Of a stretch of 44,282 bases of DNA, positions 771 to 40,341 are shown in pieces. Below the pieces are notes generated by a model that worked only from the letters and a program-made list of their open reading frames with translations, was not told the DNA's origin and made no database searches. The stretch's first letter is position 1. The number at the start of each line of letters is the position of its first letter. A program made the position numbers and the translations under genes. Source of the stretch: a virus; the IMG/VR virus record IMGVR_UViG_3300010352_002455; one strand, 5' to 3'.

Positions 771-3284
771 CTATAAAGAAATTTTTTCTTTTGCAAATTT
801 TATTTCTGCCTTTATGTTTTCTTTCCCCTCCGTAAATTCAAAGGTCATGGTCACCGGCAACAGCCTAACCCCGTCAATTAACACCCACCTCGTTTGGGCT
901 TTAGTCTCAGAATCCTGCGGCTTTAAGAGGGCAATTATTTGCAAAAAAACAGAAAGAGGAACTAAAAACTTATAAACTACATATTCGCACTTTGCCAGGA
1001 AATTAAGCCAAGGTTTTACATATATTTCCCCGACTGAATTTTCTCCGGTGGCGGTGATGTCAATACCTCTAATACGATTTCCATTATCATTATAACTAAC
1101 CGGGGAAGACTTTACATATTTAACACCATTGCCAAAATCAGATAATCCAAAATAATTCATTAAAATTAGAGGAAAATCATTGTTTTCAGTATCAAACAGA
1201 GCGCTTGCACCTTGTAAATTAATATCTGGGAAATTATTATCCACCGCTCCTGGATATCTGTCGTTTCCGGGAACCTTTAAGGAGGGTTTAACCTCTGTTA
1301 CATCTTCGCTTTTTCCACACACAAGTTTGTGATCGTTCCCCGGTCCTTGTATCCATGATATTGACCAATTTACATCATCTTGTTTTGACAAATTATAGCG
1401 ATTTTCTGTTTTTACGAGGCAATATTTCCCGATATTAAACTCACAATATGGAATATCTGAATATTTTATAACGTCATCAATTTTTTTAATAACATCAATT
1501 TCCTCACTTTCAGTAGGCTCTAAAAAATATTCATATTGTTTTTCGTCTTGCTCTTCTATGATTGTTTCTTCTGTAAGAACATATTTAGACAAATCAAGGA
1601 ATTTGTTTCCCAAAATTGTATCTTTAAAAAACGATAACTCAATTTGTTTTTTTCTGCTGTCAATATAATAATTGAGTCCAAATAGGCTGCATACCGTATT
1701 AAACAACTCTCCATTTGTTAAATTTGGAACATGCTCACTATATTTAAGAATATTAGAAAAAATATTAAACTTTCCGCTTCGTGACATTGCGGCACTTACA
1801 AAGGCAATATCTTCCTGCCTCGACAAATCAAAAAAACTGTTTTCAGGCTGTTGTGTATAAATATAAGTTGCCATTTTGCTCTGTGACTGCGAAGCATAAA
1901 CATTAAACGATCCCAAATCATTGTTTGAATCATAATAAATCATTTGATACCCAAAGAAAAACCCTATTTTTTTACCAATATCTGATTCGTCAAAGGTTTG
2001 TTGAAAAACATATTCAAACTCCCCGATACGATGTCCGTTTGAATCCTGACCCAAATCTGTCAGGTCCAATGCAGTACTTCCACCGAAGGTGTGATATATT
2101 TCGGAATAAACACAATTAGGATTAACCCATTCCGGATATGGATAACCTGAAATAAAATTATTAAAATCTATATTCCCGTTTTGGTCCAAAAAATTACAAC
2201 TAAAAAAAACATAATAGCGACTTGCGTCAGAGTAAGGGCCTTCGCCGAAGGCTTGTTTTGAAATTAAGGCTTTAATTTTAACATGAAAATGATAATTACC
2301 AGCTTTAGTAATAGTAATAGCATGAGTTGTGTCATTCCACATATTTGTATTTTCTTTATCAAAAAGATTTTTCTTCAACAACTCCAATTTTCCGGTTTGA
2401 TTAATGGTGTACCACGTATCAAGTTGTTGATTAACGGCCGCATATATGCCACTATTAAATAGAAAAAAATGAGACGCAGAAATATCCATTCCACGAAGGG
2501 ATTGACAGATCATTCTTTTTACGTTTAAATCATCTTTAAAATCACCAGTAAGTTTATACCCGGCGTTTTCAACTATTTTGTTGATTAGCCATAAAAATGA
2601 TAGAGCAGGGGCAAAAGCAAATGAATTCCACCCAATTTCTTCATCAAGTGGATCGGTTGGCATGGAATTAAATACCCGTACAACACTATCTCTTTCTCGT
2701 GATTCAACAACTTCTCCATATCTGTCAAAAAAAAGTCTGTTAAGTAGTTTATTGTGACCTTCAAGCCCTGCAAGTTGTCCATTGTGAATCCCAAATCCCT
2801 CGTTTGATGATCCATAAAAGCTATCATTTTTAAAGAGCGGGAAACGAATATTTGAGCCCGGTTCAATAGTCTTTTTCAAAAATTCAATAAACTTTGTTTT
2901 GTGTTCTTGATAATTTTCACTAATTATCAGGTCCTCCCCATATTGATTTTCTTTTAGTTTTCTATCTGCAAAGCCTTCCGGGTATGGATTTACCACAACG
3001 CCGCACGAATAACTATTTTTTGAACTTTTTTGAAGATATAAGTCTCCATTTGCAAATTCAACCCCACCAACACTGACCACCGCTTTATATTTTTTAAGAC
3101 GCTGAACATAAATATAGCGGGCGTGGGAGAACACAAGATCGTTTTTTTGTGCCGGTACGTCGAAAGTAAAAATTACATCACCCTCAATCTTTTCTGTATT
3201 GAAAATAGAGTTATTCATCTCCATTTGTATAGATGTCCCTATTTTAATATACAGTTCTTTATTTTCTATTAGTATTTTAAGCAT
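771..3284 (-). CDS. Large virion structural protein at the distal end of the tail operon (baseplate or fibre candidate)
   Basis: 837-aa ORF, the last gene of the co-oriented tail gene string downstream of the tape measure. No motif recognised. Confidence 0.4.
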   Translation of the reverse strand: MLKILIENKELYIKIGTSIQMEMNNSIFNTEKIEGDVIFTFDVPAQKNDLVFSHARYIYVQRLKKYKAVVSVGGVEFANGDLYLQKSSKNSYSCGVVVNPYPEGFADRKLKENQYGEDLIISENYQEHKTKFIEFLKKTIEPGSNIRFPLFKNDSFYGSSNEGFGIHNGQLAGLEGHNKLLNRLFFDRYGEVVESRERDSVVRVFNSMPTDPLDEEIGWNSFAFAPALSFLWLINKIVENAGYKLTGDFKDDLNVKRMICQSLRGMDISASHFFLFNSGIYAAVNQQLDTWYTINQTGKLELLKKNLFDKENTNMWNDTTHAITITKAGNYHFHVKIKALISKQAFGEGPYSDASRYYVFFSCNFLDQNGNIDFNNFISGYPYPEWVNPNCVYSEIYHTFGGSTALDLTDLGQDSNGHRIGEFEYVFQQTFDESDIGKKIGFFFGYQMIYYDSNNDLGSFNVYASQSQSKMATYIYTQQPENSFFDLSRQEDIAFVSAAMSRSGKFNIFSNILKYSEHVPNLTNGELFNTVCSLFGLNYYIDSRKKQIELSFFKDTILGNKFLDLSKYVLTEETIIEEQDEKQYEYFLEPTESEEIDVIKKIDDVIKYSDIPYCEFNIGKYCLVKTENRYNLSKQDDVNWSISWIQGPGNDHKLVCGKSEDVTEVKPSLKVPGNDRYPGAVDNNFPDINLQGASALFDTENNDFPLILMNYFGLSDFGNGVKYVKSSPVSYNDNGNRIRGIDITATGENSVGEIYVKPWLNFLAKCEYVVYKFLVPLSVFLQIIALLKPQDSETKAQTRWVLIDGVRLLPVTMTFEFTEGKENIKAEIKFAKEKISL

Positions 3285-3286
3285 GA

Positions 3287-3928
3287 TTACAAATATTCTA
3301 TTTCAGGCGGTGTAAAATTTCCATCATATCTACATACATTTGAAATTCTTATTTCATCAAGAATTGAGGTTCCCGTACTTAAAAATCTTAGCCCATATGT
3401 TGTTGCATATTGAGGGGTTCCTGATACCGAAGCGGTTACTTCTAAAACCCCATCTAAATATAATTTAATTGTTCCATTTTTATGAGTCATTGCGATGTGG
3501 TGCCAAGCGTTTAAGCTTGCAACCGTTACCCCTTGTAAATATTTTTGACTACCTGAATAATAATAGAAAGTAACCTTTCCTTGAGTTAAGCCAAAGCTGA
3601 AATAATCAACCCCGTTTGGAGAGTTTCCACAACAGACATTAGTCCCATGAGTGTTTGAATTAGCAGTACTCAATAATGCTGTATTATATACCCACATATC
3701 TATTGTATAATCTTGAGTACTCCATTTTAAAGCATCAACAAAAGCAGTGTAAAAAAAATTGGATAATGCTGCACTGATTCCATTATTAAACTTCCCCGTG
3801 ACAATTGATGATGAATTATTAGTAACAGTTCTTGCAACCAGTGATGAATCAGTATAATCTTCGCAGTGTAAGACTAATAAACAATTTTCATCAATTGCTA
3901 ATGAGCTTTCTTTGTGTTCCTTAATCAT
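3287..3928 (-). CDS. LamG / concanavalin-A-like lectin domain protein (putative receptor- or glycan-binding tail protein)
   Basis: LamG-type signature ..NAWHHIAMTHKNGTIKLYLDGVL.. and terminal ..ILDEIRISNV... MIKEH N-terminus shared with two other ORFs. Confidence 0.6.
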   Translation of the reverse strand: MIKEHKESSLAIDENCLLVLHCEDYTDSSLVARTVTNNSSSIVTGKFNNGISAALSNFFYTAFVDALKWSTQDYTIDMWVYNTALLSTANSNTHGTNVCCGNSPNGVDYFSFGLTQGKVTFYYYSGSQKYLQGVTVASLNAWHHIAMTHKNGTIKLYLDGVLEVTASVSGTPQYATTYGLRFLSTGTSILDEIRISNVCRYDGNFTPPEIEYL

Positions 3929-3934
3929 GATTTT

Positions 3935-4108
3935 TTATTTAAAACCAATTTTCCAAGCTGAAGAATCATTTCCAACCTCGTAATAAGTCGGTATTGATAT
4001 AGACTTTTCTACATAAAAAACAGCACACAAGCAATAAACCAACAGAGAGAAAAGCACTGCTATTATTGCATATTTAAAGAACAATCTGATGTTAATTAGT
4101 TTTATCAT
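3935..4108 (-). CDS. Small predicted membrane protein (57 aa), below the ORF-track cutoff
   Basis: Hand translation gives MIKLINIRLFFKYAIIAVLFSLLVYCLCAVFYVEKSISIPTYYEVGNDSSAWKIGFK*. It fills the gap between two LamG-like genes and has one hydrophobic helix. Confidence 0.4.
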   Translation of the reverse strand: MIKLINIRLFFKYAIIAVLFSLLVYCLCAVFYVEKSISIPTYYEVGNDSSAWKIGFK

Positions 4109-4116
4109 AATATTTT

Positions 4117-4734
4117 TTATTTTACCCAGATTTTTAAATCTTTTACATAGCCGGAAAACGTTCCCCCTGCTGAGTATACTTTACTGCAAAATTGTAAATA
4201 ATTACAAGAATTTATTCTTGTACGAAGCAATGTATTACTACCCTCTATTATTGTTCCTCTTGTTAGATTTTCATTCAAAAGTATAGCCGAATTATCAGTA
4301 ATGTCTTTATAAGTATATTGTAAGGTGTTTTGGGTATTATTAGCTATAAAAGAAGTAACCGAAACGTTTCCGCTCGCAACCAATATGCCTTGCTTTGCTG
4401 TTGCTGAATTATAGTTTGTTGGAGTATCTGTTATTGTAAAATATGTATAGTTGTTTGTGTTTGGTATTGCGGAAACAAAATTTAGAAGATAAACATCAGC
4501 TCTAATTAGTATTGTAGTAGCAGACAATAATAGCGCTCGTAGGGTTGATATATTCCAATAAACATTTGATTTATATTGTTGTGCGACAATTTTTATTCCT
4601 CTATCAGCTGCATAAGCATCCCACGTTCCATCTACATTTACACCCTGTATTTGATTAATAACATCGTTGACGTCGCTTGTAAGCGGAGCGTGAAAGATCA
4701 AGCTGTAGTCGTTGTTCACATGTTCCTTTATCAT
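4117..4734 (-). CDS. LamG-like jelly-roll protein (putative tail accessory or receptor-binding protein)
   Basis: MIKEH N-terminus. The C-terminal strand ..GTFSGYVKDLKIWVK resembles the LamG terminal motif (G-x-hydrophobic-D-D/E-hydrophobic-R/K-I-W/Y). Confidence 0.4.
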   Translation of the reverse strand: MIKEHVNNDYSLIFHAPLTSDVNDVINQIQGVNVDGTWDAYAADRGIKIVAQQYKSNVYWNISTLRALLLSATTILIRADVYLLNFVSAIPNTNNYTYFTITDTPTNYNSATAKQGILVASGNVSVTSFIANNTQNTLQYTYKDITDNSAILLNENLTRGTIIEGSNTLLRTRINSCNYLQFCSKVYSAGGTFSGYVKDLKIWVK

Positions 4735-5186
4735 TTCATTTCAGAATAAGTATTACTGTTAAATGCTGCATCAATATCTTCTATAGTTCCTGCAGCAAGA
4801 ATAAGGGCTTCAACGCGTGTATATTCTGCTATACACTGCTTTGCAATACTGGCTGCTTTTGCAATTATTTCTTCTTTTTTTTCTATTGTATAAACATCCG
4901 GCAAAAATGCGTCGGTTATCTGCCATCCTGCCACTACAGCATTTGAAGTTGAGAGTGAAAGATTATGAAGGTCGTTGATTTTTTTCATACGATACTCTTC
5001 TACATCGATAACAGGAGCAACAGTAAGTTGACGGTTTTTAATTTCTAAAACTGAAGCAGTTGGATTTTGAAGAAAAAAAACAACCATCCCCTCTGTTAAT
5101 CTTTCAAACACTAAATTATTGATTAAGGAATGAGAAGATACGACTCTCCCCTGATAGAAGTAATAATAAGTTTGTAATTCTGCCAT
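4731..5186 (-). CDS. Hypothetical tail-region protein
   Basis: 151-aa ORF. Its stop overlaps the start of the next gene (ATGA), and it is co-oriented within the tail operon. Confidence 0.5.
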   Translation of the reverse strand: MAELQTYYYFYQGRVVSSHSLINNLVFERLTEGMVVFFLQNPTASVLEIKNRQLTVAPVIDVEEYRMKKINDLHNLSLSTSNAVVAGWQITDAFLPDVYTIEKKEEIIAKAASIAKQCIAEYTRVEALILAAGTIEDIDAAFNSNTYSEMK

Positions 5187-30273: not shown

Positions 30274-30330
30274 TTTTTTTGAGAAAATTAGAGGTTGACA
30301 AGGGGAAACAGAAAATCCGGCCGGCAAAGG

Positions 30331-30363
30331 AAAAAAAAAAGAACACCGAGCTGAAGCTCGGTG
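30331..30363 (-). terminator. Intrinsic terminator (second of a tandem pair) downstream of the primase-helicase
   Basis: On the minus strand, caccgagc-ttca-gctcggtg (8 bp perfect) is followed by ttcttttttttt. Confidence 0.65.
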
Positions 30364-30378
30364 TGAATAATTTGAAAC

Positions 30379-30407
30379 AAAAAAAGCGGCTTTTTGCCGC
30401 TTTTTTT
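30379..30407. terminator. Intrinsic terminator (first of a tandem pair; symmetrical A/T flanks)
   Basis: aaaaaaa-gcggc-ttttt-gccgc-ttttttt, starting 18 nt after the primase-helicase stop. Confidence 0.65.
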
Positions 30408-30424
30408 GACACTCAAGACAATAT

Positions 30425-33208
30425 CTATAAATCTGAGTGTACTTCAGTACCATAAGTTTTTAGATAATACATTTCAACCGTTTTGCCGTCTATTTTTTTC
30501 ATAATCCGTAGCGGGTCGTTTCTTAATTCCAAGGGGTTTAAACATTCTATATAATCCGTATTGGCTACAAAGGCTTTCAATGCCTTTGTAAACTTGCTGC
30601 TTGACCACCCCTTTAGGTTTGTGGATCTTATAAACTCCTCAATACATTGCGCTTTGTATATCAAACAATCCACGTTTTCACTGTTTTTATTAAAGTAAAC
30701 CTCTGCCCATTCACGGAACTGTTCGCCCATTTGCTGTATGTTCATACGCTTTATGACGTTCTGCATCGGTGGCTGAATCATTAGATTGTCTTTGATTGTA
30801 GACAGGTAAAATTGAATGCAGTCAACGCAAAAATTAAAATCCTCGTTCCACCATTCTTCGGTATATTTTTCATTATAAAGATCATAACCAAAATCATCGG
30901 CAATTCTCATATCTACCGAATATTTATTCTCATCTGTGGCTTTATGGTAGTAATCACTGAATACACAAAACAATATTCTTCTCATTGTACTACTATCCTT
31001 GTCGTGCGGCGGAAAATTCGATGTAACGGCAATTTTAGCCGATTTTCCGAAGTCAATTTCCTTTGACTTTACATTCTTCTCGTTTATATTCATGCTGCCG
31101 GTAATCATCGAATAAAAAAAGTTGAAATCAAAGTATTTATAAGCATCATCAATTAAAAGAATATCCGTATGTTCATCAACACGATCCATGACGTGCTGGT
31201 TTTCCGTTAACTTCTGATTCCGTCCGGGCAAGGATACCATATTTTTCAAATTCTTCAGAAATTCAAACAAAAAAGACTTTCCGGATCCTCCGGCACTTTC
31301 ATCTTCTTCGGAGAGTTTATTTTCCATCACCCAAACACCCCAAGCGCGCGATGGTGATTTGTACCGGTGAAGCAAATAGCCTATTGTGAATACTTTATTT
31401 ATTAAGTGTTCTAACTGCTCCTGATTTTCTTCTTCAGATAGGCGCGGAGAGGCTATAGCGAATTTATATTGTTTCAAAAATTCATCATTGGCTTGAATAT
31501 CTTTTTCTGCCCGCGTTTCAAATTCTTCATGCCAGTATATCCTGCTTGCATTAATGAGAAATCTAAATAAATGGCTTTTTTTATGTTTAATCTCAAAGTT
31601 AATACACTCCGTTTCGTTGTCGTATTTTGCCATAAATGCCGGTTCAATCCTTTTAAAATAATGTGGGGATACTTTCTTTTGCCATGCATACACACCGGTT
31701 TCATTTCCTCTGTTTTCTTCTATTTTATCCGAATAAATTGTAATAGCTTTATTCTTAAAGAAGAATATCTGATTTTCAGCAGAATAATCTGTAAAGTCCG
31801 GTAGTAAATCTTCCAAATCGTCCATCACGGAAACTCCGGTTCTTTTTGAATTGAGAATAAGATTTTGGATATCATGGTCAACTTTCCGATCCTCTAAAAA
31901 TTTGAGAATAAAGCCCCTGATTTGCTTTCCGGTAATTTCTTCAACCGTGTAGCCGGTAATCTTGATAAAAGTTACTTTTCCACTCTCAACGTCCGTTATT
32001 TTCCCGAAGCCATTCACCTTAAGAAAGTGCAGCATATAAACGGTATTGATTTCCCACTTAACTCCTTCTTTGCTGTATGATTTTTCCCAGAATTTACAGG
32101 GTTTGGCCATGCGGATCAATTCTTTAAAATCAAAAATATTCGGGTATAGTTCGACAAAGTCCCGGAGATCCTTTCGCGGCTTTCCCCTCATATCTTTATA
32201 TGTCCGAAGATTTTCCGGAAGTTCTATGGTGAAAATGTCTATGTATTCAAGGGCTAATTCATTCCCCTTTTTCACTCCGGTTTCATCGATGTCCGGAATA
32301 TTATAGATTCGCTCTACTCTCTTTAAAATCTCACTGTATTGATAACTGTCCAACTTAGCCGTTTCACTGTTAAGCCATAGCGGTAGGTAACCCATACCGG
32401 CAACATTTAAGGCATCTCGCTCCCCGGAACAAAAAATTGCTTCAGGTAGTTTTTTGGGTTTTCTTTCTTTTTTTGTATCAGGAGTTTTTTCTTCGTCAAA
32501 TTCATCGTCTTCTTCTTTTTCGATTTCTTTTAGATATTTTTCATAAGCTCTTTTTAACTCATCCATTCCGTTGATATAGTTTTTGGGCTTTACTCCATCA
32601 TAAAAAAACCTGAAAGCCTTATCAGGGTTGAGTGGTTGATATATCTTCCGAAACTCTCCACAATTCCGCATAAAAATCGGATATGTTTCAGTTGATGAAA
32701 TTGTGGTAGTTTTACGGTCCTTTGTCTTTGTATAGCTTTCAACAGAAAAATATGAATATTTGTCACAGGTTTCCTGCTTAACCATGTGGCCAAGTACTTT
32801 AAGTTCAAATTCTGAAAACTTCTCTTTTAGTTTATAACTGAAGGCTCCTTCTTTTTCTTCCAGAGTAGCCTCTCTTTGTTCAATGGCAGGTTTATTGACC
32901 GTGAAACTTAGCTTCTCTGATACTTCATATCGTTCTGCAAGCCGGTAGAGAGCTTCTCTGAACTCCAAATTTTCCTCTCTCATACAGATTTCAATTGGGG
33001 CCATGGCTGTCCCATCATCACCGAAATCGGTTACTTTCCATATCCCGTTCAATTGTTTCATTGATGCAGAAGCAGTTTTTTCGTTTCCTCGAATTTTGAA
33101 AAAACGTTGTTTTCCTTCAGTATCCTTTGCCTGCGGATAATAATAATAAATGATTTCCCTGCCGGCGTCGGTAGCATCATAAATCTTTTCAAGTAGAGAG
33201 TTTTTCAT
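30425..33208 (-). CDS. Primase-helicase (Toprim primase domain fused to a D5/P4-type SF3 helicase)
   Basis: 927 aa. Toprim-like ..FCSGERDALNVAG.. and ..IPDIDETG..; Walker A ..SAGGSGKSFLFEFL..; Walker B ..DILLIDDA... Confidence 0.8.
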   Translation of the reverse strand: MKNSLLEKIYDATDAGREIIYYYYPQAKDTEGKQRFFKIRGNEKTASASMKQLNGIWKVTDFGDDGTAMAPIEICMREENLEFREALYRLAERYEVSEKLSFTVNKPAIEQREATLEEKEGAFSYKLKEKFSEFELKVLGHMVKQETCDKYSYFSVESYTKTKDRKTTTISSTETYPIFMRNCGEFRKIYQPLNPDKAFRFFYDGVKPKNYINGMDELKRAYEKYLKEIEKEEDDEFDEEKTPDTKKERKPKKLPEAIFCSGERDALNVAGMGYLPLWLNSETAKLDSYQYSEILKRVERIYNIPDIDETGVKKGNELALEYIDIFTIELPENLRTYKDMRGKPRKDLRDFVELYPNIFDFKELIRMAKPCKFWEKSYSKEGVKWEINTVYMLHFLKVNGFGKITDVESGKVTFIKITGYTVEEITGKQIRGFILKFLEDRKVDHDIQNLILNSKRTGVSVMDDLEDLLPDFTDYSAENQIFFFKNKAITIYSDKIEENRGNETGVYAWQKKVSPHYFKRIEPAFMAKYDNETECINFEIKHKKSHLFRFLINASRIYWHEEFETRAEKDIQANDEFLKQYKFAIASPRLSEEENQEQLEHLINKVFTIGYLLHRYKSPSRAWGVWVMENKLSEEDESAGGSGKSFLFEFLKNLKNMVSLPGRNQKLTENQHVMDRVDEHTDILLIDDAYKYFDFNFFYSMITGSMNINEKNVKSKEIDFGKSAKIAVTSNFPPHDKDSSTMRRILFCVFSDYYHKATDENKYSVDMRIADDFGYDLYNEKYTEEWWNEDFNFCVDCIQFYLSTIKDNLMIQPPMQNVIKRMNIQQMGEQFREWAEVYFNKNSENVDCLIYKAQCIEEFIRSTNLKGWSSSKFTKALKAFVANTDYIECLNPLELRNDPLRIMKKIDGKTVEMYYLKTYGTEVHSDL

Positions 33209-33214
33209 TCCAAA

Positions 33215-33550
33215 TTATTTAAAATAGTGTTTTAGGACGATCACGTCCCATTTTTGTGAGTGTATATTAATATTATAGTTTGAATACATTTTTTCCATCA
33301 TTTTGATGGAATCTTCCTTATTTAGTCCGCAATCCATATAAAAAATGGGATCCGGAATGTCTACAAGGTTGAATGTTGAAATGTGAATACATTTTACAAC
33401 TCCGGCGGCTTCACAATCTTTCCGTAGATGGACCTCGTAATTATATATCTCACCTTCTTTGTATTTATTCTGGTTATGAATTCTGATTGTGGTAAAGATA
33501 TCACAAGCCATTTTCCCATTCCAATTTTTTGAGAATTTTATTGTTTGCAT
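33215..33550 (-). CDS. Hypothetical protein (possible ASCH/PUA-like fold, weak)
   Basis: 111-aa ORF. ..FTTIRIHNQNKYKEGEIYNYEV.. faintly resembles ASCH. Confidence 0.4.
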   Translation of the reverse strand: MQTIKFSKNWNGKMACDIFTTIRIHNQNKYKEGEIYNYEVHLRKDCEAAGVVKCIHISTFNLVDIPDPIFYMDCGLNKEDSIKMMEKMYSNYNINIHSQKWDVIVLKHYFK

Positions 33551-33580
33551 TATAATTCTAATTTATGCTGTTTTTCAATA

Positions 33581-33892
33581 TTAACTAAAATAAAAGGTTT
33601 TACCGGTTCCGAATTTTTGTTGCTTAATAGTAGCCATAAAAGGAAAATCTGTTTTAGGTATTTTAGATAATGCTTCCTTTATTGGAGTAGCATTAGTAAA
33701 AAACTTTTTTTCAGATCCTTCAAATAATACCTTAACTATATATCTTCCATCCCCGTGCCGTGTTTTTACATTCGCTTCAAAATCAATTACCTCAATTTCG
33801 CAATTTACAACGTCTTCAACTGAAATTACAGGAACGGAAAAGATGTGTTTTCCTTCAAAAGGATCTATGTTAAAATCAGAAAATTTATTCAT
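33581..33892 (-). CDS. Hypothetical protein, apparently translationally coupled to the DGR RT
   Basis: 103-aa ORF whose start overlaps the RT stop by 8 nt. By eye it looks beta-rich and near-neutral in charge, so it is not Avd-like. Confidence 0.5.
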   Translation of the reverse strand: MNKFSDFNIDPFEGKHIFSVPVISVEDVVNCEIEVIDFEANVKTRHGDGRYIVKVLFEGSEKKFFTNATPIKEALSKIPKTDFPFMATIKQQKFGTGKTFYFS

Positions 33893-34931
33893 ATCTTATT
33901 ATTTTTTTAAGAAGGTTATTTGAGTTACAATGCTTTGCCCAACCGATATGAGGGGCAATTGCTTTCTTATAATCTAAAATAGAAATGTCTTTTTTATTCA
34001 ACTTTGCAGCTTTTCTGCAAAATCTTTTCTTTATGCTTTTTCGCATCCGGATATGTGTATGATAAAATACATATCCTACAAAATCAATACCTCTTTTTTC
34101 AATAGGGAAAACCTGATAATTGCCCTTTATTTGCAACTTTAGATTGTCTTTCATATATCTGTCTATCTCAAGATACAAATCTTGCAAATACGGCTTATTT
34201 TGAGCTAAAATTACAATATCATCTGCATAGCGATAATAATATTTTACCTGTTTTTCCTCTTTAATACAATGATCGAAATAAGTCAAATACAGGTTTGCAA
34301 AAAATTGACTTAAATAATTCCCTATCGGAACACCAGGAGCGGAATCAATTATTTCATCAAGTAATTTTAAGAGCTTAACATCTTTGATTTTTTTACGAAT
34401 AATAACCTTTAGGATATCATGATTTATGCTTGGATAAAATTTCCTAATATCAAATTTCAAACAATATTGAGTGTCTGAAACATTTTTTAAATCACGTTTT
34501 AAATCTCTTAAAACAGCGTGTATTCCTCGTTTTTTTATGCAAGAATATGTATTTGAAATAAAAACAGATATCCATATCGGTTCCAAGATGTTCATAATGG
34601 CATGGTGAACTATACGATCACGAAAAGGAAGTCTGTAAACAAGTCTTTCTTTCGGGTCGTGTATCATAAAAACACTATATTCAGACGTTACATAAGTTTC
34701 TGATATCAGTTCCTTTTGTAACTCATTTATGTTGTTGTTCAAGTTTTTTTCAAACAATCGAACACCATAACTCTTTTCTTTTCCTTGACTTGCTTTGTTA
34801 TATGCAAGATAAAGATTGTCAATTTCACAGATCTTTTCGTATAAATTTCCTATTCTTTTCATGCCTTTGCTTTTATTATGAGCTTTCGTTATTACTACCA
34901 GCACATTTTTTAATATGTTATTTTTTGCCAA
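33885..34931 (-). CDS. DGR-type reverse transcriptase
   Basis: ..VPIGNYLSQFFANLYL.. (the DGR-typical SQ motif), ..YYRYADDIVILA.. (YxDD) and N-terminal ..IGNLYEKICEIDNLYLAYNKA... The true start may be the internal ATG at 34862 (MKRIGNLYEKI..), which would leave about 100 nt between TR and RT. Confidence 0.9.
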   Translation of the reverse strand: MAKNNILKNVLVVITKAHNKSKGMKRIGNLYEKICEIDNLYLAYNKASQGKEKSYGVRLFEKNLNNNINELQKELISETYVTSEYSVFMIHDPKERLVYRLPFRDRIVHHAIMNILEPIWISVFISNTYSCIKKRGIHAVLRDLKRDLKNVSDTQYCLKFDIRKFYPSINHDILKVIIRKKIKDVKLLKLLDEIIDSAPGVPIGNYLSQFFANLYLTYFDHCIKEEKQVKYYYRYADDIVILAQNKPYLQDLYLEIDRYMKDNLKLQIKGNYQVFPIEKRGIDFVGYVFYHTHIRMRKSIKKRFCRKAAKLNKKDISILDYKKAIAPHIGWAKHCNSNNLLKKIIRYE

Positions 34932-34959
34932 GAGGCAGGGTCTTTACCTTTAAAATCGT

Positions 34960-35041
34960 ATTGCATAGGTGGGAGGTGTCGGTCGCATTCGCATTCGAGT
35001 TGTTGTAATTCGAGTTGTTGAAAACGAGCCCCGACGGCGAG
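34960..35041 (-). repeat. DGR template repeat (TR)
   Basis: The coding-strand register reads ..SPSGLVF-NNSNYNNSNANATDTSH.. with 7 AAY codons. It aligns without gaps to 35144-35225 and 35531-35612, and differs only where the TR has A on the minus strand. Confidence 0.9.
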
Positions 35042-35074
35042 CTCCAAAAAGGCAAACAACCTGTTGTCATTTTA

Positions 35075-35434
35075 TTATAGAATAATGTTTTTATAAACTT
35101 CTGTAAAAGTTTTACCTGCATGATCGGATGCTTTTTCCGATTCAAAGCAAAGGCGGGAGGCGTCGGCCGCAACCGCATACGAGACGTAGTAACTCGAGCA
35201 GTCGAAAACGAGCCCCGACGGCGAGGATGGGTCTATCCGAAACACCGGAAACCATTTTTTTTGATTGGTGTCCATCATGTCCGGTTTCCATCCATCGTTG
35301 ATTGCTTCTGTTAATACAATTGCATTATACTGATCTTCAAAATATGCCCGTAGGTCATCAGGTGAGTTTGAAAAATCTACTTTTGGTCTTTTGGTAACCT
35401 CAAATGCTTCATCAAGTGTTTCTGTTTTTTTCAT
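35075..35434 (-). CDS. DGR variable (target) protein 1, small and leaderless
   Basis: 119 aa. The C-terminal ..SSPSGLVFDCSSYYVSYAVAADASRLCFES.. contains VR1. Confidence 0.85.
   Translation of the reverse strand: MKKTETLDEAFEVTKRPKVDFSNSPDDLRAYFEDQYNAIVLTEAINDGWKPDMMDTNQKKWFPVFRIDPSSPSGLVFDCSSYYVSYAVAADASRLCFESEKASDHAGKTFTEVYKNIIL
35144..35225 (-). repeat. DGR variable repeat 1 (VR1), including an IMH-like 3' end
   Basis: In the 74-bp core (35152-35225) there are 13 mismatches to the TR, all at TR adenines. The 3' end is GC-rich (cgcctcccgcctttgcttt on the coding strand). Confidence 0.9.
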
Positions 35435-35461
35435 TTTTTTTTGTTTTATGCCTTTCGGCGG

Positions 35462-35941
35462 TTATTTAATAAATTTGGCGTATAATGCTGTAAAAGTTTT
35501 GCCTGCATGATCAGACTTTTCTTTCGATTCAAAGCAAAGGCGGGAGGCGTCGGTCGCAATCGCAACCGAGCAGTCGTAATACGAGTAGCAGAAAACGAGC
35601 CCCGACGGCGAGGATGGGTCTATCCGAAACACCGGAAACCATTTTTTTTGATTGGTGTCCATCATGTCCGGTTTCCATCCATCGTTGATTGCTTTAGAAA
35701 TAGTTTTAAGCTTTCTATAGACAATTTCATCATCAGTGAAGCCATTTCGTTTCATGTCAATTTCATTTATTTGTTCTTCGTCCAATTCATCACAGGCAGT
35801 TTGATATGATATAACCCTGTCAATTACACTTTTGGAAAAGAAATTCTTTCCAAAACTATCTTCAAGCATTGATTTGAATTCTTTAGAAGCTGTTTTATAC
35901 AACTCTCTTGCTTTTTTTTCTTCAATTTGTAATGTTTTCAT
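35462..35941 (-). CDS. DGR variable (target) protein 2, small and leaderless, paralogue of target 1
   Basis: 159 aa. The C-terminal ..INDGWKPDMMDTNQKKWFPVFRIDPSSPSGLVFCYSYYDCSVAIATDASRLCFES.. contains VR2. Confidence 0.85.
   Translation of the reverse strand: MKTLQIEEKKARELYKTASKEFKSMLEDSFGKNFFSKSVIDRVISYQTACDELDEEQINEIDMKRNGFTDDEIVYRKLKTISKAINDGWKPDMMDTNQKKWFPVFRIDPSSPSGLVFCYSYYDCSVAIATDASRLCFESKEKSDHAGKTFTALYAKFIK
35531..35612 (-). repeat. DGR variable repeat 2 (VR2), including an IMH-like 3' end
   Basis: In the 74-bp core (35539-35612) there are 12 mismatches to the TR, all at TR adenines. The fixed IMH-like differences are the same as in VR1. Confidence 0.9.
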
Positions 35942-36378: not shown

Positions 36379-36948
36379 TTAGTCGAGGATCACCCAGTCT
36401 TCTGCTAAGATGTCTGTTTGTGAGGCCAACCAGCCATTTACAATTCTACCATTAGCATCTTTAAGACACAAGTAGGCAGTAAATTCTACCACATCACTTT
36501 CATCGATTTCAATTGCTTTTCCATCCATATCGAAGCAATCATGCAAATAGTAGTCTTTTACTGTTTGCGGGAGTGATTTGATGTTGTTTGCTACAACATC
36601 AACCCTGATTTCGTCAGCGGGGCGCATAAAAATAAACATTCCTTTTCCATTCCATCCTTCTCGTGCTACTCTTTTCCCTTGTTTTAAGGCTTTAATAGCA
36701 TCTCCGAATGTGAGGTTCCCATTTTCTGTTTCGTTAAAATCAAAAAGGACCTTACACTCTTTTCCTTCAACGAACAGCCTTGCCGCATCCGGATTAACTG
36801 TTCCGATTGAAATATTTCCATACGGAGTCATTTCAAAAAACATGTCGTTTTCAAAAGAACCGCATGTCACAACATCAAGAGTTATTAATTCTCCAGAACC
36901 GCGAACCTCTTTTTTTGTTACTTTAAATTTTGTAAGTACTTTGCTCAT
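36379..36948 (-). CDS. DUF2829-domain protein (Tad2-like anti-Thoeris candidate) with a ~80-aa N-terminal extension
   Basis: ..LTFGDAIKALKQGKRVAREGWNGKGMFIFM.. and ..NGWLASQTDILAEDWVIL match the DUF2829 consensus at both ends. Confidence 0.7.
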   Translation of the reverse strand: MSKVLTKFKVTKKEVRGSGELITLDVVTCGSFENDMFFEMTPYGNISIGTVNPDAARLFVEGKECKVLFDFNETENGNLTFGDAIKALKQGKRVAREGWNGKGMFIFMRPADEIRVDVVANNIKSLPQTVKDYYLHDCFDMDGKAIEIDESDVVEFTAYLCLKDANGRIVNGWLASQTDILAEDWVILD

Positions 36949-37976: not shown

Positions 37977-38522
37977 TTATTTCTGAATTTTAATATTATT
38001 TAATATCTGCAGCGTATCGCCGAAGCAACTACTAATCGCAATTGCTTTATAAGTCGGCTTTTTGAAGATGCACTTTCTTTTTTTGTATATAGCAATCAGG
38101 AGACTGTCTGTGTGAGAATAGTCGGTTATATAGACATTGCTATTTTCAACACAGCCGGCAATGGAAAAGCATTTGTCTGTTATCTCAAAAGCTGCTATAG
38201 AGGTATTTGTAATTGTATCATATATATATACAAGGGTGTCGCGCCTGATCAGCGTGTCTCTATAGCTATATTTTACGTTTACAACATTTGTGACCTGTCC
38301 GGCACGGATCCCAAATTTCTTCAATTCTGTAGTGATATCTGAGTGATATTTTTTTAACTCCTTAGCTGTAAGGGTTTGAAGCTCGTTCATCTGTCCGGTT
38401 ACTTCGACTCTAAAATTTTCTGATATCCGATTTTTTTCTTTTGTTACGGAGATAACAATAGCTGAAAGAATTCCGACAGCTAAAATCAAGACTGCAATTA
38501 TGATAAACAGATATTTTTTCAT
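37977..38522 (-). CDS. Hypothetical membrane-anchored protein
   Basis: 181 aa with an N-terminal hydrophobic helix (MKKYLFIIIAVLILAVGILSAIVI..). Confidence 0.5.
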   Translation of the reverse strand: MKKYLFIIIAVLILAVGILSAIVISVTKEKNRISENFRVEVTGQMNELQTLTAKELKKYHSDITTELKKFGIRAGQVTNVVNVKYSYRDTLIRRDTLVYIYDTITNTSIAAFEITDKCFSIAGCVENSNVYITDYSHTDSLLIAIYKKRKCIFKKPTYKAIAISSCFGDTLQILNNIKIQK

Positions 38523-38977
38523 TGTTTTTTCTCAGGATTTTGAATTTTCTCAATTTGGCTCTGCAGCTCTTGAATTTTATTAGTTTGAGCAATATAGGCA
38601 TCACTTGTTTTATCAACTATAGCAGCAATTTTTTTGTTACAACGTTGAATTTCCTTCATGTGATCCTCAACAATCAGTTCCCTTACTACTTTTTCACAGA
38701 CAGGAATACAGGTACGCAGAATAAAATCGCGTTCAGCTTTTGGAAGTGATGATTTTTTATCTGATATATTCAAAAACTCGTTTGAAAAAGAAGATACATT
38801 CAAAATTCCTTTGTCTTTCAAATTATCATAAGGATGCCGCTTTAACTTAAGCCCTGGTTTAAGAGGAAATGCATTTCTTTCAAAAACATAAGCATCTAAT
38901 TTAGTTTTAAGGTGTTTTTGAAAAAATGGTGACTTTACAATTTTGTCAAGATTGTACTTTTCGTTTTTTTTACTCAT
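38519..38977 (-). CDS. Hypothetical protein
   Basis: 152-aa ORF. Confidence 0.5.
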   Translation of the reverse strand: MSKKNEKYNLDKIVKSPFFQKHLKTKLDAYVFERNAFPLKPGLKLKRHPYDNLKDKGILNVSSFSNEFLNISDKKSSLPKAERDFILRTCIPVCEKVVRELIVEDHMKEIQRCNKKIAAIVDKTSDAYIAQTNKIQELQSQIEKIQNPEKKQ

Positions 38978-39266
38978 AATAAATAGTTATATTGTGTTTC
39001 TTTGCAACCCAGTGTTCCCATCTTGCGCCTTTGCTTTCTTTCCAGTCATTTAGCATATAGATTTTGTCACAGTTTTTCTTAAGATTCCGGATGCAGAATA
39101 GCATCTGTCGAAACCATGACCAATTTTGAGGAACCCTCTTCAGTGGATTATATGCCAACTGCCCAAACTCTTTTTCACAATAAATTTGAGCTTTATTAAA
39201 TTTAGAATAACACTCATCGTAATCTTCTCCGGAAACCTTTCCTGCTATATAGATATGTTTTTTCAT
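38970..39266 (-). CDS. DUF4406 / nucleoside 2-deoxyribosyltransferase-like protein
   Basis: MKKHIYIAGKVSG.., ..YNP.. and ..CDKIYMLNDWKESKGARWEH..A.. follow the DUF4406 pattern (IYIAGPMSG ... CD.IYML.GWE.S.GA..E). Confidence 0.55.
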   Translation of the reverse strand: MKKHIYIAGKVSGEDYDECYSKFNKAQIYCEKEFGQLAYNPLKRVPQNWSWFRQMLFCIRNLKKNCDKIYMLNDWKESKGARWEHWVAKKHNITIYYE

Positions 39267-39781
39267 ATTGATTTCAGGGCGTTAATTAATTGATAAAGAG
39301 GGGCAATTCCCTGAAATGATTTAAAAAACGAATTAGGGGTGTATATTCCTGAACGACTTTCTGCTGCCTTTATATTGCAATACCAGATTGAATTGTTATC
39401 ATTGTTATTACAGTGATAATCAAAACTCTTTCTATCAATTTCAATATTGAAATGATTTACTAGTTTTCTAAGTTCGAGTGTGAGAGACTCAAGTTGTTCT
39501 TTTGTGTATGATGCGAAGAACTGATGCCCCCTATATCCGCGTCCACACACGTCCGTTACATCGGTTATATTTCCTTCAGCCTGTCCCGGTAAACTTGGCA
39601 GCCATTTTTTTTCTTCGGATAAAAAAACAGGACCTTCATTTTCAAGATATATTTCCCCAAAAGTCAAATTAGCAAGATTAAGAAATGAATTTTGTGGATA
39701 AACAACTTTTCCATTTTTAAAAATAACACAACCAGGATTACTTACTGATCGTAAGTTGTTAATTACTATTTGTGTATTCAT
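39263..39781 (-). CDS. Hypothetical protein
   Basis: 172-aa ORF. Confidence 0.5.
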   Translation of the reverse strand: MNTQIVINNLRSVSNPGCVIFKNGKVVYPQNSFLNLANLTFGEIYLENEGPVFLSEEKKWLPSLPGQAEGNITDVTDVCGRGYRGHQFFASYTKEQLESLTLELRKLVNHFNIEIDRKSFDYHCNNNDNNSIWYCNIKAAESRSGIYTPNSFFKSFQGIAPLYQLINALKSI

Positions 39782-40341
39782 ACAATATTATTTTGTACCG
39801 CAAACCTCACGATGCCCATCTTTGACCATGTGCCCAGTTTGCGATTAATTTTATTGATTTGATTTCTTACTGTCACGGTAGCTGTACCAACTCTGTCGGC
39901 TATTTGTTTGTCGGCAAGATCCTGTCTCACCAAGCCAATTATTTGCAATTCTCTTTTAGAGAGATTCTCTGCATTTTGCTTACAAATAAAACGCTCTCCG
40001 GCGCAATGACCTCTGAAAGGACAATAAACAAATTCTTCGTTTATATTTCCCTGCGCATCGACATCAGATTTCTGATCATTATTTATAAGCTTACACTTAA
40101 TAAACTGAAATACTTCTTCATTTTCGCTCTTACAGCCCATAGCGGCCAAGCCGGTTCTGTATCCGGGATGTTTATCAAGATAATCCATAATGATATTGAA
40201 AATATCATCTGTGATATCGTCGGCTATAAAAAAATCCCTCTTTTTTCCGCCTTGAAAGCAAATAATTGCATCCTGGTATTCGTAGAATTCAATTTCAGAA
40301 AATTCTGGGATAAGACAATGTGGAATGTTTGGTGTATTCAT
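39778..40341 (-). CDS. LuxR/GerE-type HTH transcriptional regulator
   Basis: C-terminal ..LSKRELQIIGLVRQDLADKQIADRVGTATVTVRNQINKINRKLG.. is a canonical LuxR-type HTH. A Cys-rich segment precedes it. Confidence 0.7.
   Translation of the reverse strand: MNTPNIPHCLIPEFSEIEFYEYQDAIICFQGGKKRDFFIADDITDDIFNIIMDYLDKHPGYRTGLAAMGCKSENEEVFQFIKCKLINNDQKSDVDAQGNINEEFVYCPFRGHCAGERFICKQNAENLSKRELQIIGLVRQDLADKQIADRVGTATVTVRNQINKINRKLGTWSKMGIVRFAVQNNIV

Follow-up and report, generated by a model that had tools for sequence, protein, structure and literature searches.

The window analysed here, a stretch of 44,282 nucleotides from IMG/VR virus record IMGVR_UViG_3300010352_002455, contains a diversity-generating retroelement (DGR) whose coding strand is the minus strand. 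Along that strand, two target genes, T2 and T1, carrying variable repeats VR2 and VR1, respectively, are followed by a template repeat (TR), an RNA of the Rfam family RT-17, a reverse transcriptase (RT) gene and an open reading frame (ORF) of 103 amino acids, here named o103 (Table 1). The window genome encodes an integrase, a tape-measure protein and a head protease, and its source is a temperate tailed phage of Bacteroidota. The locus is very probably a functional DGR of this phage, diversifying two small paralogous proteins. An earlier note, made from the letters alone, had described it as a complete DGR. The repeats and the RT named in that note were recovered and its interpretation as a DGR is supported, but "complete" has to be qualified, as no Avd gene was found and both the RT-17 spacer and the RT-coupled 103-aa ORF had been missed.

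The TR and the two VRs were re-aligned without gaps over 82 nt, with 16 mismatches to the TR in VR1 and 15 in VR2; within the 74-nt core the counts were 13 and 12, respectively, reproducing the positions and numbers given in the earlier note. All 31 mismatches fall on adenines of the minus-strand TR and none of its 60 non-adenine positions differs in either VR, in agreement with the strict adenine specificity that had been claimed. The same three copies were recovered by an independent repeat finder (family D2). When both strands of the window were scanned in full for the TR sequence, with changes tolerated at adenines only, no VR beyond these two was identified, and no remote DGR target was found in the window. 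Both VRs lie in the 3′ part of coding targets, and the non-coding TR is found close to the RT, 34 nt past the T1 stop codon and about 98 nt ahead of the RT ATG. The register proposed for the TR, with its seven AAY codons, was confirmed (AAC AAC TCG AAT TAC AAC AAC TCG AAT GCG AAT GCG ACC GAC ACC TCC CAC) and corresponds to the reading frame of both target ORFs, from which a repertoire of about 1.1e10 peptides per target was computed.

T1 and T2 are clear paralogues, their 3′ halves (35075-35307 and 35462-35694) forming a 233-nt repeat at 87% identity, and it could be argued on this ground that nothing but divergence of ordinary paralogous DNA, by point mutation or gene conversion and without reverse transcription, underlies the three repeats. 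The probability of this explanation is negligible, and the present data have effectively refuted it already: all differences concern one base on one strand of the non-coding copy, the same mismatch pattern is found in 114 pairs from 79 loci, and a DGR-type RT adjoins the repeats. As regards the paralogues themselves, the 82 nt upstream of either VR appear identical on reading, an identity that extends well past the TR homology. In two sibling contigs (L095 and L096) a T2-like 5′ sequence is joined to the 3′ half of T1, which is due either to recombination between the paralogues or to assembly collapse.

Table 1. Features of the DGR locus, in window coordinates
Feature	Coordinates	Strand	Description
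o103	33581-33892	minus	103 aa; ATG inside ...ATGAATAA, 8-nt overlap with RT stop; pI (isoelectric point) 6.7
DGR RT	33885-34931	minus	mechanical ORF of 348 aa from TTG 34931; RVT_1 6.6e-17; PHROG 1423 2e-123
RT-17 RNA (Rfam RF03020)	34866-34942	minus	TR-RT spacer; 50.9 bits (gathering score 40.4), E 1e-8
TR	34960-35041	minus	82 nt, 22 A, non-coding; 74-nt core 34968-35041
TR mutagenic zone	34978-35019	minus	42 nt, 17 A; seven AAY codons plus TAC, ACC and GAC
TR IMH*-like 3′ end	34960-34977	minus	
T1	35075-35434	minus	119 aa; proximal, shorter paralogue without the first ~45 residues of T2; VR region from residue 74
Hairpin 3′ of VR1	35123-35141	minus	6 bp, ATCGGA / TCCGAT, 7-nt loop; within T1 coding sequence
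VR1	35144-35225	minus	mutagenised zone 35162-35203; IMH-like 3′ end 35144-35161; core 35152-35225
T2	35462-35941	minus	159 aa; distal, longer variable protein; PHROG 11581, function unknown; VR region from residue 114
VR2	35531-35612	minus	mutagenised zone 35549-35590; IMH-like 3′ end 35531-35548; core 35539-35612

At the 3′ end of the repeats the pattern changes. Both VRs carry the same differences from the TR at 34977, 34970, 34966, 34962 and 34961, as the earlier note had reported; every one of these positions is a TR adenine, and the last adenine found to be variable in the window is at 34983. The note had guessed, from this one locus, that they represent an IMH versus IMH* pair (IMH, initiation of mutagenic homing), and family-wide statistics support the guess. 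For this purpose a set of 114 unique TR/VR pairs, drawn from 79 related loci, was indexed to the C of a conserved CTA (window 34968). Between relative positions -51 and -20, TR adenines are matched by all four bases in the VRs (at -42, for example, by T in 47, G in 34, A in 11 and C in 12), and mismatches at other bases amount to 0-2 per position over the 114 pairs. Further 3′, TR adenines are replaced in the VRs by one and the same base: by G at -16 (90/93 pairs; GCA to GCG, silent), at -9 (103/108) and at -2 (94/97), and by T at +2 (104/105; CTA to CTT, silent). Since protein-level selection cannot keep synonymous sites constant under randomisation, positions -16, -9, -2 and +2 appear not to be transferred, and the conserved asymmetry, two of whose sites are synonymous, is best interpreted as a putative IMH/IMH* pair. 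In BPP-1, IMH and IMH* show this kind of asymmetry between TR and VR (PMC5758913).

The hairpins described next to the VRs fared less well. A 6-bp hairpin does exist after VR1, where the next 45 nt have a folding energy of -6.2 kcal/mol, and a weak one, at -3.0 kcal/mol, follows VR2, but a role for them as a conserved cis element was rejected: the regions downstream of the VRs, at -4.0 kcal/mol, fold slightly better than shuffled sequences (-2.4) but no better than the region downstream of the TR (-3.8), and the position of the hairpin is not conserved in the relatives inspected.

The RT next to the repeats carries the DGR-type motifs IGNYLSQ and YADD that had been noticed in it, i.e., an intact YxDD and the [I/V/L]GxxxSQ signature of motif 4, the latter being reported as characteristic of DGRs (PMC7826257). 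Its best solved relative is bRT of the Bordetella phage (8ub7; 1.7e-51), compared to about 1e-17 for RTs of retron type or from group II introns, which places it with the DGR enzyme rather than with either of these; in NCBIfam, only RT families below their cutoff were matched. In the alignment to bRT, R96 corresponds to R74, the I of IGNYLSQ to I181, IGNYLSQ to IGSLTSQ and YADD to YMDD, and both R74 and I181 have been described to promote adenine mutagenesis in bRT (PMC7826257). The start codon is probably ATG 34862, giving a protein of 325 aa, because the RT-17 RNA overlaps the 5′ extension of the mechanical ORF. The homology to bRT begins shortly past this ATG, which is conserved in the alignment of relatives, and gene callers proposed an RT of 339 or 325 aa on sibling contigs.

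Contig-level evidence of recent activity was obtained from a contig of the same phage in JGI sample 3300009694 (L005), which is 99.6% identical to the window over 5,324 nt (window 30306-35626). All 22 differing columns are located inside VR1 (35172-35202) or VR2 (35559-35590), and amount to 19 substitutions plus one codon, with seven substitutions in VR1 and twelve sites and the codon in VR2. The TR, the RT, o103, the next gene and a 927-aa primase-like gene are the same in both, and the two VRs of L005, read in codons, differ from the TR at adenines only. Given this identity over 5.3 kb everywhere except in the VRs, the element has probably been active recently, and the contig points to VR diversification in the phage population. 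Several contigs break off within or close to one of the target genes, at VR2 in the case of L005 and L093, which is expected of a hypervariable site. The additional codon is found at L005:1-110 (window 35531-35626), where VR2 is one AAC-derived codon longer than both the TR and the VR2 of the window, reading TAC TAC CGC GGC TCG where the TR has TAC AAC AAC TCG; this could be due to slippage of the RT on AAC repeats or to a chimeric assembly of variants.

It might be argued that the DGR is a fossil, whose RT or homing signals are dead and whose VR/TR differences are a historical record, as the VR alleles of the window recur in other contigs (both VRs in L093, VR1 in L095 and L096). This is very unlikely, considering that L005 differs from the window in its VRs alone, that the RT ORF is intact with catalytic and signature motifs conserved, and that window and L005 do not differ in the TR.

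The spacer that separates the TR from the RT matches the RT-17 family above its gathering threshold, and RT-17 is presumed to be the 3′ part of the DGR template RNA, possibly with a role in priming. Its consensus helices are backed by compensatory changes: in an alignment of 25 loci, each of the four pairs of hairpin P1 shows such changes and none is broken, and P2 and P3 covary as well. RT-17 was also found at the gathering score, and in the same place, in four further loci (L001, L059, L090 and L091). The same position is taken by RT-10 in BPP-1 (PMC5737381), and by RT-3 in Hankyphage BK010646 (L092:3831-3980) and BS-TP4 (L099:2753-2916), which allows a further orphan "RT" motif to be recognised as a DGR spacer.

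Avd has been found in about 74% of DGRs, and is thus not universal. Among the 54 ORFs of the window neither Avd (PF05635) nor an HRDC domain was detected, and the gene following the RT, with which it overlaps, is o103. When 80 viral loci were retrieved via o103 itself, it was found immediately after the RT in 78 of them, one locus beginning at o103 and one (L033) having no RT; T2 and T1 are located upstream of RT-o103 wherever the stored DNA reaches that far. In other phages the same domain is linked or fused to the RT: a homologue with 41% identity makes up residues ~327-431 of the 434-aa RT of Hankyphage, the domain forms the C-terminus of the 496-aa RT of BS-TP4, and in LoVEphage it is found at the end of the ORF following the RT ORF. 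This linkage or fusion therefore spans phages with different backbones and different types of targets. The AlphaFold2 (AF2) model of o103 (pLDDT 89.5) showed weak Foldseek matches that are nearly all nucleic-acid binders with an oligonucleotide/oligosaccharide-binding (OB) fold, namely PrgE, Teb1, human SSB, the RuvA N-domain, HIN and RPA. Because of the lack of Avd in the lineage, the coupling to the RT observed here and the fusion to the RT in Hankyphage, we infer that o103 is an OB-like accessory module of an Avd-less lineage. Wu et al. described a Lineage 3 without avd, and reported unexplained C-terminal extensions on about 20% of DGR RTs (PMC5758913).

According to another explanation, o103 is merely a conserved phage neighbour without any role in retrohoming, RT and RNA being sufficient as in "architecture A" of Wu et al., who listed such cassettes without accessory genes and warned that flanking genes may reflect synteny (PMC5758913). 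It would fit with the crAss-like phage cr56_1, whose related RT is followed by a holin in place of o103, with the presence of o103 without an RT in L033, and with an OB similarity that is below significance. We consider it rather unlikely, since the domain stays with the RT in four phage backbones having different targets, overlaps the RT stop codon here and is fused in frame in Hankyphage and BS-TP4, and repeated fusion is rarely a product of synteny alone.

T1 and T2 have no match in Pfam or NCBIfam. They belong to a family of 41 clusters in a word-indexed search, and of 4,420 representative clusters at E <= 0.001 in a profile search, whose alignment shows a conserved SPSGF-F followed by 14 variable residues and by ASRLCF. 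In both proteins the VR region begins at GLVF, and about 25 residues come after the VR. The AF2 model of T2 (pLDDT 89.4, pTM 0.81) comprises a helical N-domain, a β-hairpin, the VR loop and two C-terminal helices. No match to this fold was found in the PDB by Foldseek at E <= 0.001 (best probability 0.07), a search that could miss a minimal or partial C-type lectin (CLec) fold; a profile search of PDB sequences with the target family was empty, and in BFVD the model matched only uncharacterised phage proteins. In a profile-profile comparison, the C-terminal ends of large tail-like targets of class "CLec3" align with residues 110-139 of T2 (hhalign probability 92%, E 5e-7). This alignment is limited to 30 columns, so that what the small targets have in common with the tail-fibre class is a terminal VR module, without any scaffold that could be detected.

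The order of a long T2 followed by a short T1 is conserved in most related loci, and four metagenomic proteins of 277-305 aa (P0042, P0043, P0045 and P0050) combine a T2-like half and a T1-like half in one chain, both halves having a VR-like segment of their own. The conserved pair and the existence of these fusions suggest that T1 and T2 act together. A homologue of the targets with 36% identity was also found, unannotated and among small hypothetical genes, in the crAss-like phage cr4_1 (NC_055893; L009:4001-4321). No RT was present within the 8.3-kb stretch inspected around it, and the homologue could represent a remote DGR target or, alternatively, a DGR-less member of the family.

The targets may act on the virion or inside the host cell. 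T1 and T2 could be subunits of the virion that serve in receptor binding or as adhesins, although their genes are found outside the tail module, a possibility to be taken seriously even if we do not favour it. The VR module of the two shows homology to the terminal part of the VR in the large "CLec3" tail-like targets, the phage DGR targets characterised so far are almost all receptor-binding proteins (PMC8144416), and according to a caution by Roux et al., viral targets that lack annotation may be structural proteins that went unrecognised. The genomic context argues otherwise: the cassette is flanked by a DUF5906 primase/helicase-like gene and a Tad2-like gene, and in 16 diverse relatives its neighbours are of the early or replication type (DnaA-HTH, RecT, YqaJ, methylases, exonuclease, sliding clamp and Bro/ANT), with one fibre-like match only. 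Moreover, the attributes of protein cluster PC_00007 of Roux et al. ("Phage_other") fit the target family, being viral, from FCB hosts, of clade 1 and with the VR at 0.74-0.77 of the protein, which makes it a probable counterpart, of equivalence not proven, with 1.6% of members predicted as structural.

Other genes of the window were annotated as well. The Tad2-like gene (36379-36948, minus strand), two genes upstream of the targets, encodes a protein of 189 aa whose C-terminal half is similar to the Thoeris anti-defence protein Tad2 (PF11195, 3.4e-24). In the early region, also on the minus strand, a DUF4406 protein (38970-39266), a LuxR/GerE HTH protein (39778-40341) and a DUF6549 protein (37977-38522) were found, and elsewhere in the window RadC, an ArdC-N anti-restriction domain, a GH108 lysin and two Laminin_G_3 proteins. 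Among GenBank phages, megablast returned no match for 25 kb of the window, and a scan of the genome collection identified only two prophage-like relatives, in Draconibacterium and Maribellus.

Taken together, these features are consistent with the following mechanism. The RT would bind a transcript that holds the TR and the RT-17 spacer, and cDNA would be copied through the TR with random nucleotides placed wherever the template presents one of the 17 adenines in the 42-nt mutagenic zone. This cDNA would then take the place of the corresponding segment of VR1 or VR2. The last ~18 nt, in which the fixed TR/VR differences are found, would act as IMH/IMH*, making the transfer one-way and remaining uncopied themselves. 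As an outcome, each of the two small paralogues, which probably work as a pair, could display any of about 1e10 loops of 14 residues, and the OB-like o103 and the RT-17 RNA may supply the nucleic-acid handling that is provided in BPP-1 by Avd and the spacer RNA.

A number of observations count against a functional DGR assisted by o103 and RT-17. The TR adenine at relative position -12, which lies 3′ of the first fixed position, is still changed in the VRs of 23/98 pairs, so that the boundary of transfer is not sharp, and a post-VR hairpin at a conserved position was not seen in the related loci inspected. Heterogeneity within the population was deduced from a single divergent contig, L005, and the sibling contigs with window alleles at both VRs (L093) or at VR1 (L095 and L096) also have to be considered; these three may come from related samples. 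For o103, no significant match was obtained in the PDB by Foldseek (best E 0.1), its pI is neutral, unlike that of the basic Avd, and its homologue at L033:1245-1544 is preceded by a primase-like fragment instead of an RT.

The DGR is ordinary in kind and probably active, and represents a clean, compact and apparently active example of an Avd-less Bacteroidota lineage. It offers two candidate parts of an Avd-independent retrohoming, namely the OB-like o103 domain, coupled or fused to the RT, and the RT-17 RNA. The latter would give a likely job to an orphan Rfam motif, and the o103 domain could account for the unannotated C-terminal extensions counted by Wu et al. The targets represent a very large family of small proteins, with thousands of clusters, that present the "CLec3" terminal VR module on another scaffold, their genes being located among those of the early and replication type. 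In the literature searched, no account was found of the linkage and fusion of o103 to the RT, of the assignment of RT-17 to this DGR clade, of small targets carrying the VR module only, or of family-wide IMH statistics. A more far-reaching, speculative proposal, to which we attach a low probability, is that an OB-fold o103, free or fused, and the RT-17 or RT-3 RNAs take over the priming and cDNA handling for which BPP-1 uses Avd and its spacer, and that the targets form a heterodimer of small cytoplasmic early proteins acting inside the host, for example on variable defence or takeover targets, and not on the virion. If the intracellular heterodimer were real, it would be the first DGR-diversified intracellular phage effector.

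Compared to known systems, the locus differs in several respects from the DGR of BPP-1 (mtd-avd-TR-brt). The latter needs Avd, for which no gene is present in the window, and its homing is aided by a post-VR hairpin, which is not conserved in the relatives of the window locus. Its target Mtd is a C-type-lectin tail-fibre protein of 381 aa, whereas the window has two targets of 119 and 159 aa without a fold match in the PDB. The closest RTs by DNA in the phage collection are those of crAss-like phages, for example cr56_1 (NC_055890), at about 67% nucleotide and 55% amino acid identity. The DGR of cr56_1 differs by its target, a 413-aa Mtd/sulfatase-like tail protein encoded beside the RT, and by the holin that follows the RT in place of o103.

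Hankyphage (Bacteroides phage p00, BK010646) likewise carries a DGR of a Bacteroidota phage, for which adenine-directed VR diversity has been measured experimentally, and in which a small ORF between VR and TR has been drawn as "Avd" (PMC12135933). The C-terminal ~105 residues of its RT make this protein collinear with the RT plus o103 of the window. It differs in having a single tail-fibre-like target of 2,245 aa, a TR of 116 nt, an RT-3 spacer RNA, and RT and o103 fused.

An identical layout is that of DGR t120 of Wu et al. 2018 (NZ_AMSG01000002.1_4048_5085, "CLec3"), which consists of a 156-aa target (3081-3551), a 123-aa target (3558-3929) and the RT (4048-5085). The reference targets of Wu et al. 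were taken from the supplement of Roux et al., where they are labelled with the VR class CLec3, and the profile of the target family matches both targets of t120 (1.6e-17 and 1.1e-8) as well as the single target of t121 (5e-15). Differences concern the host and the sequence, and the "CLec3" label was assigned by VR alignment alone. Architecture A was defined by Wu et al. as TR-RT with no recognised accessory gene (PMC5758913), and among the parts they reported, neither o103 nor the RT-17 RNA is included; the genomic module was left without comment by them. Since its layout and targets match those of the window, the cassette type was already catalogued in the 2018 DGR reference set, and the present locus is a further example of this type.

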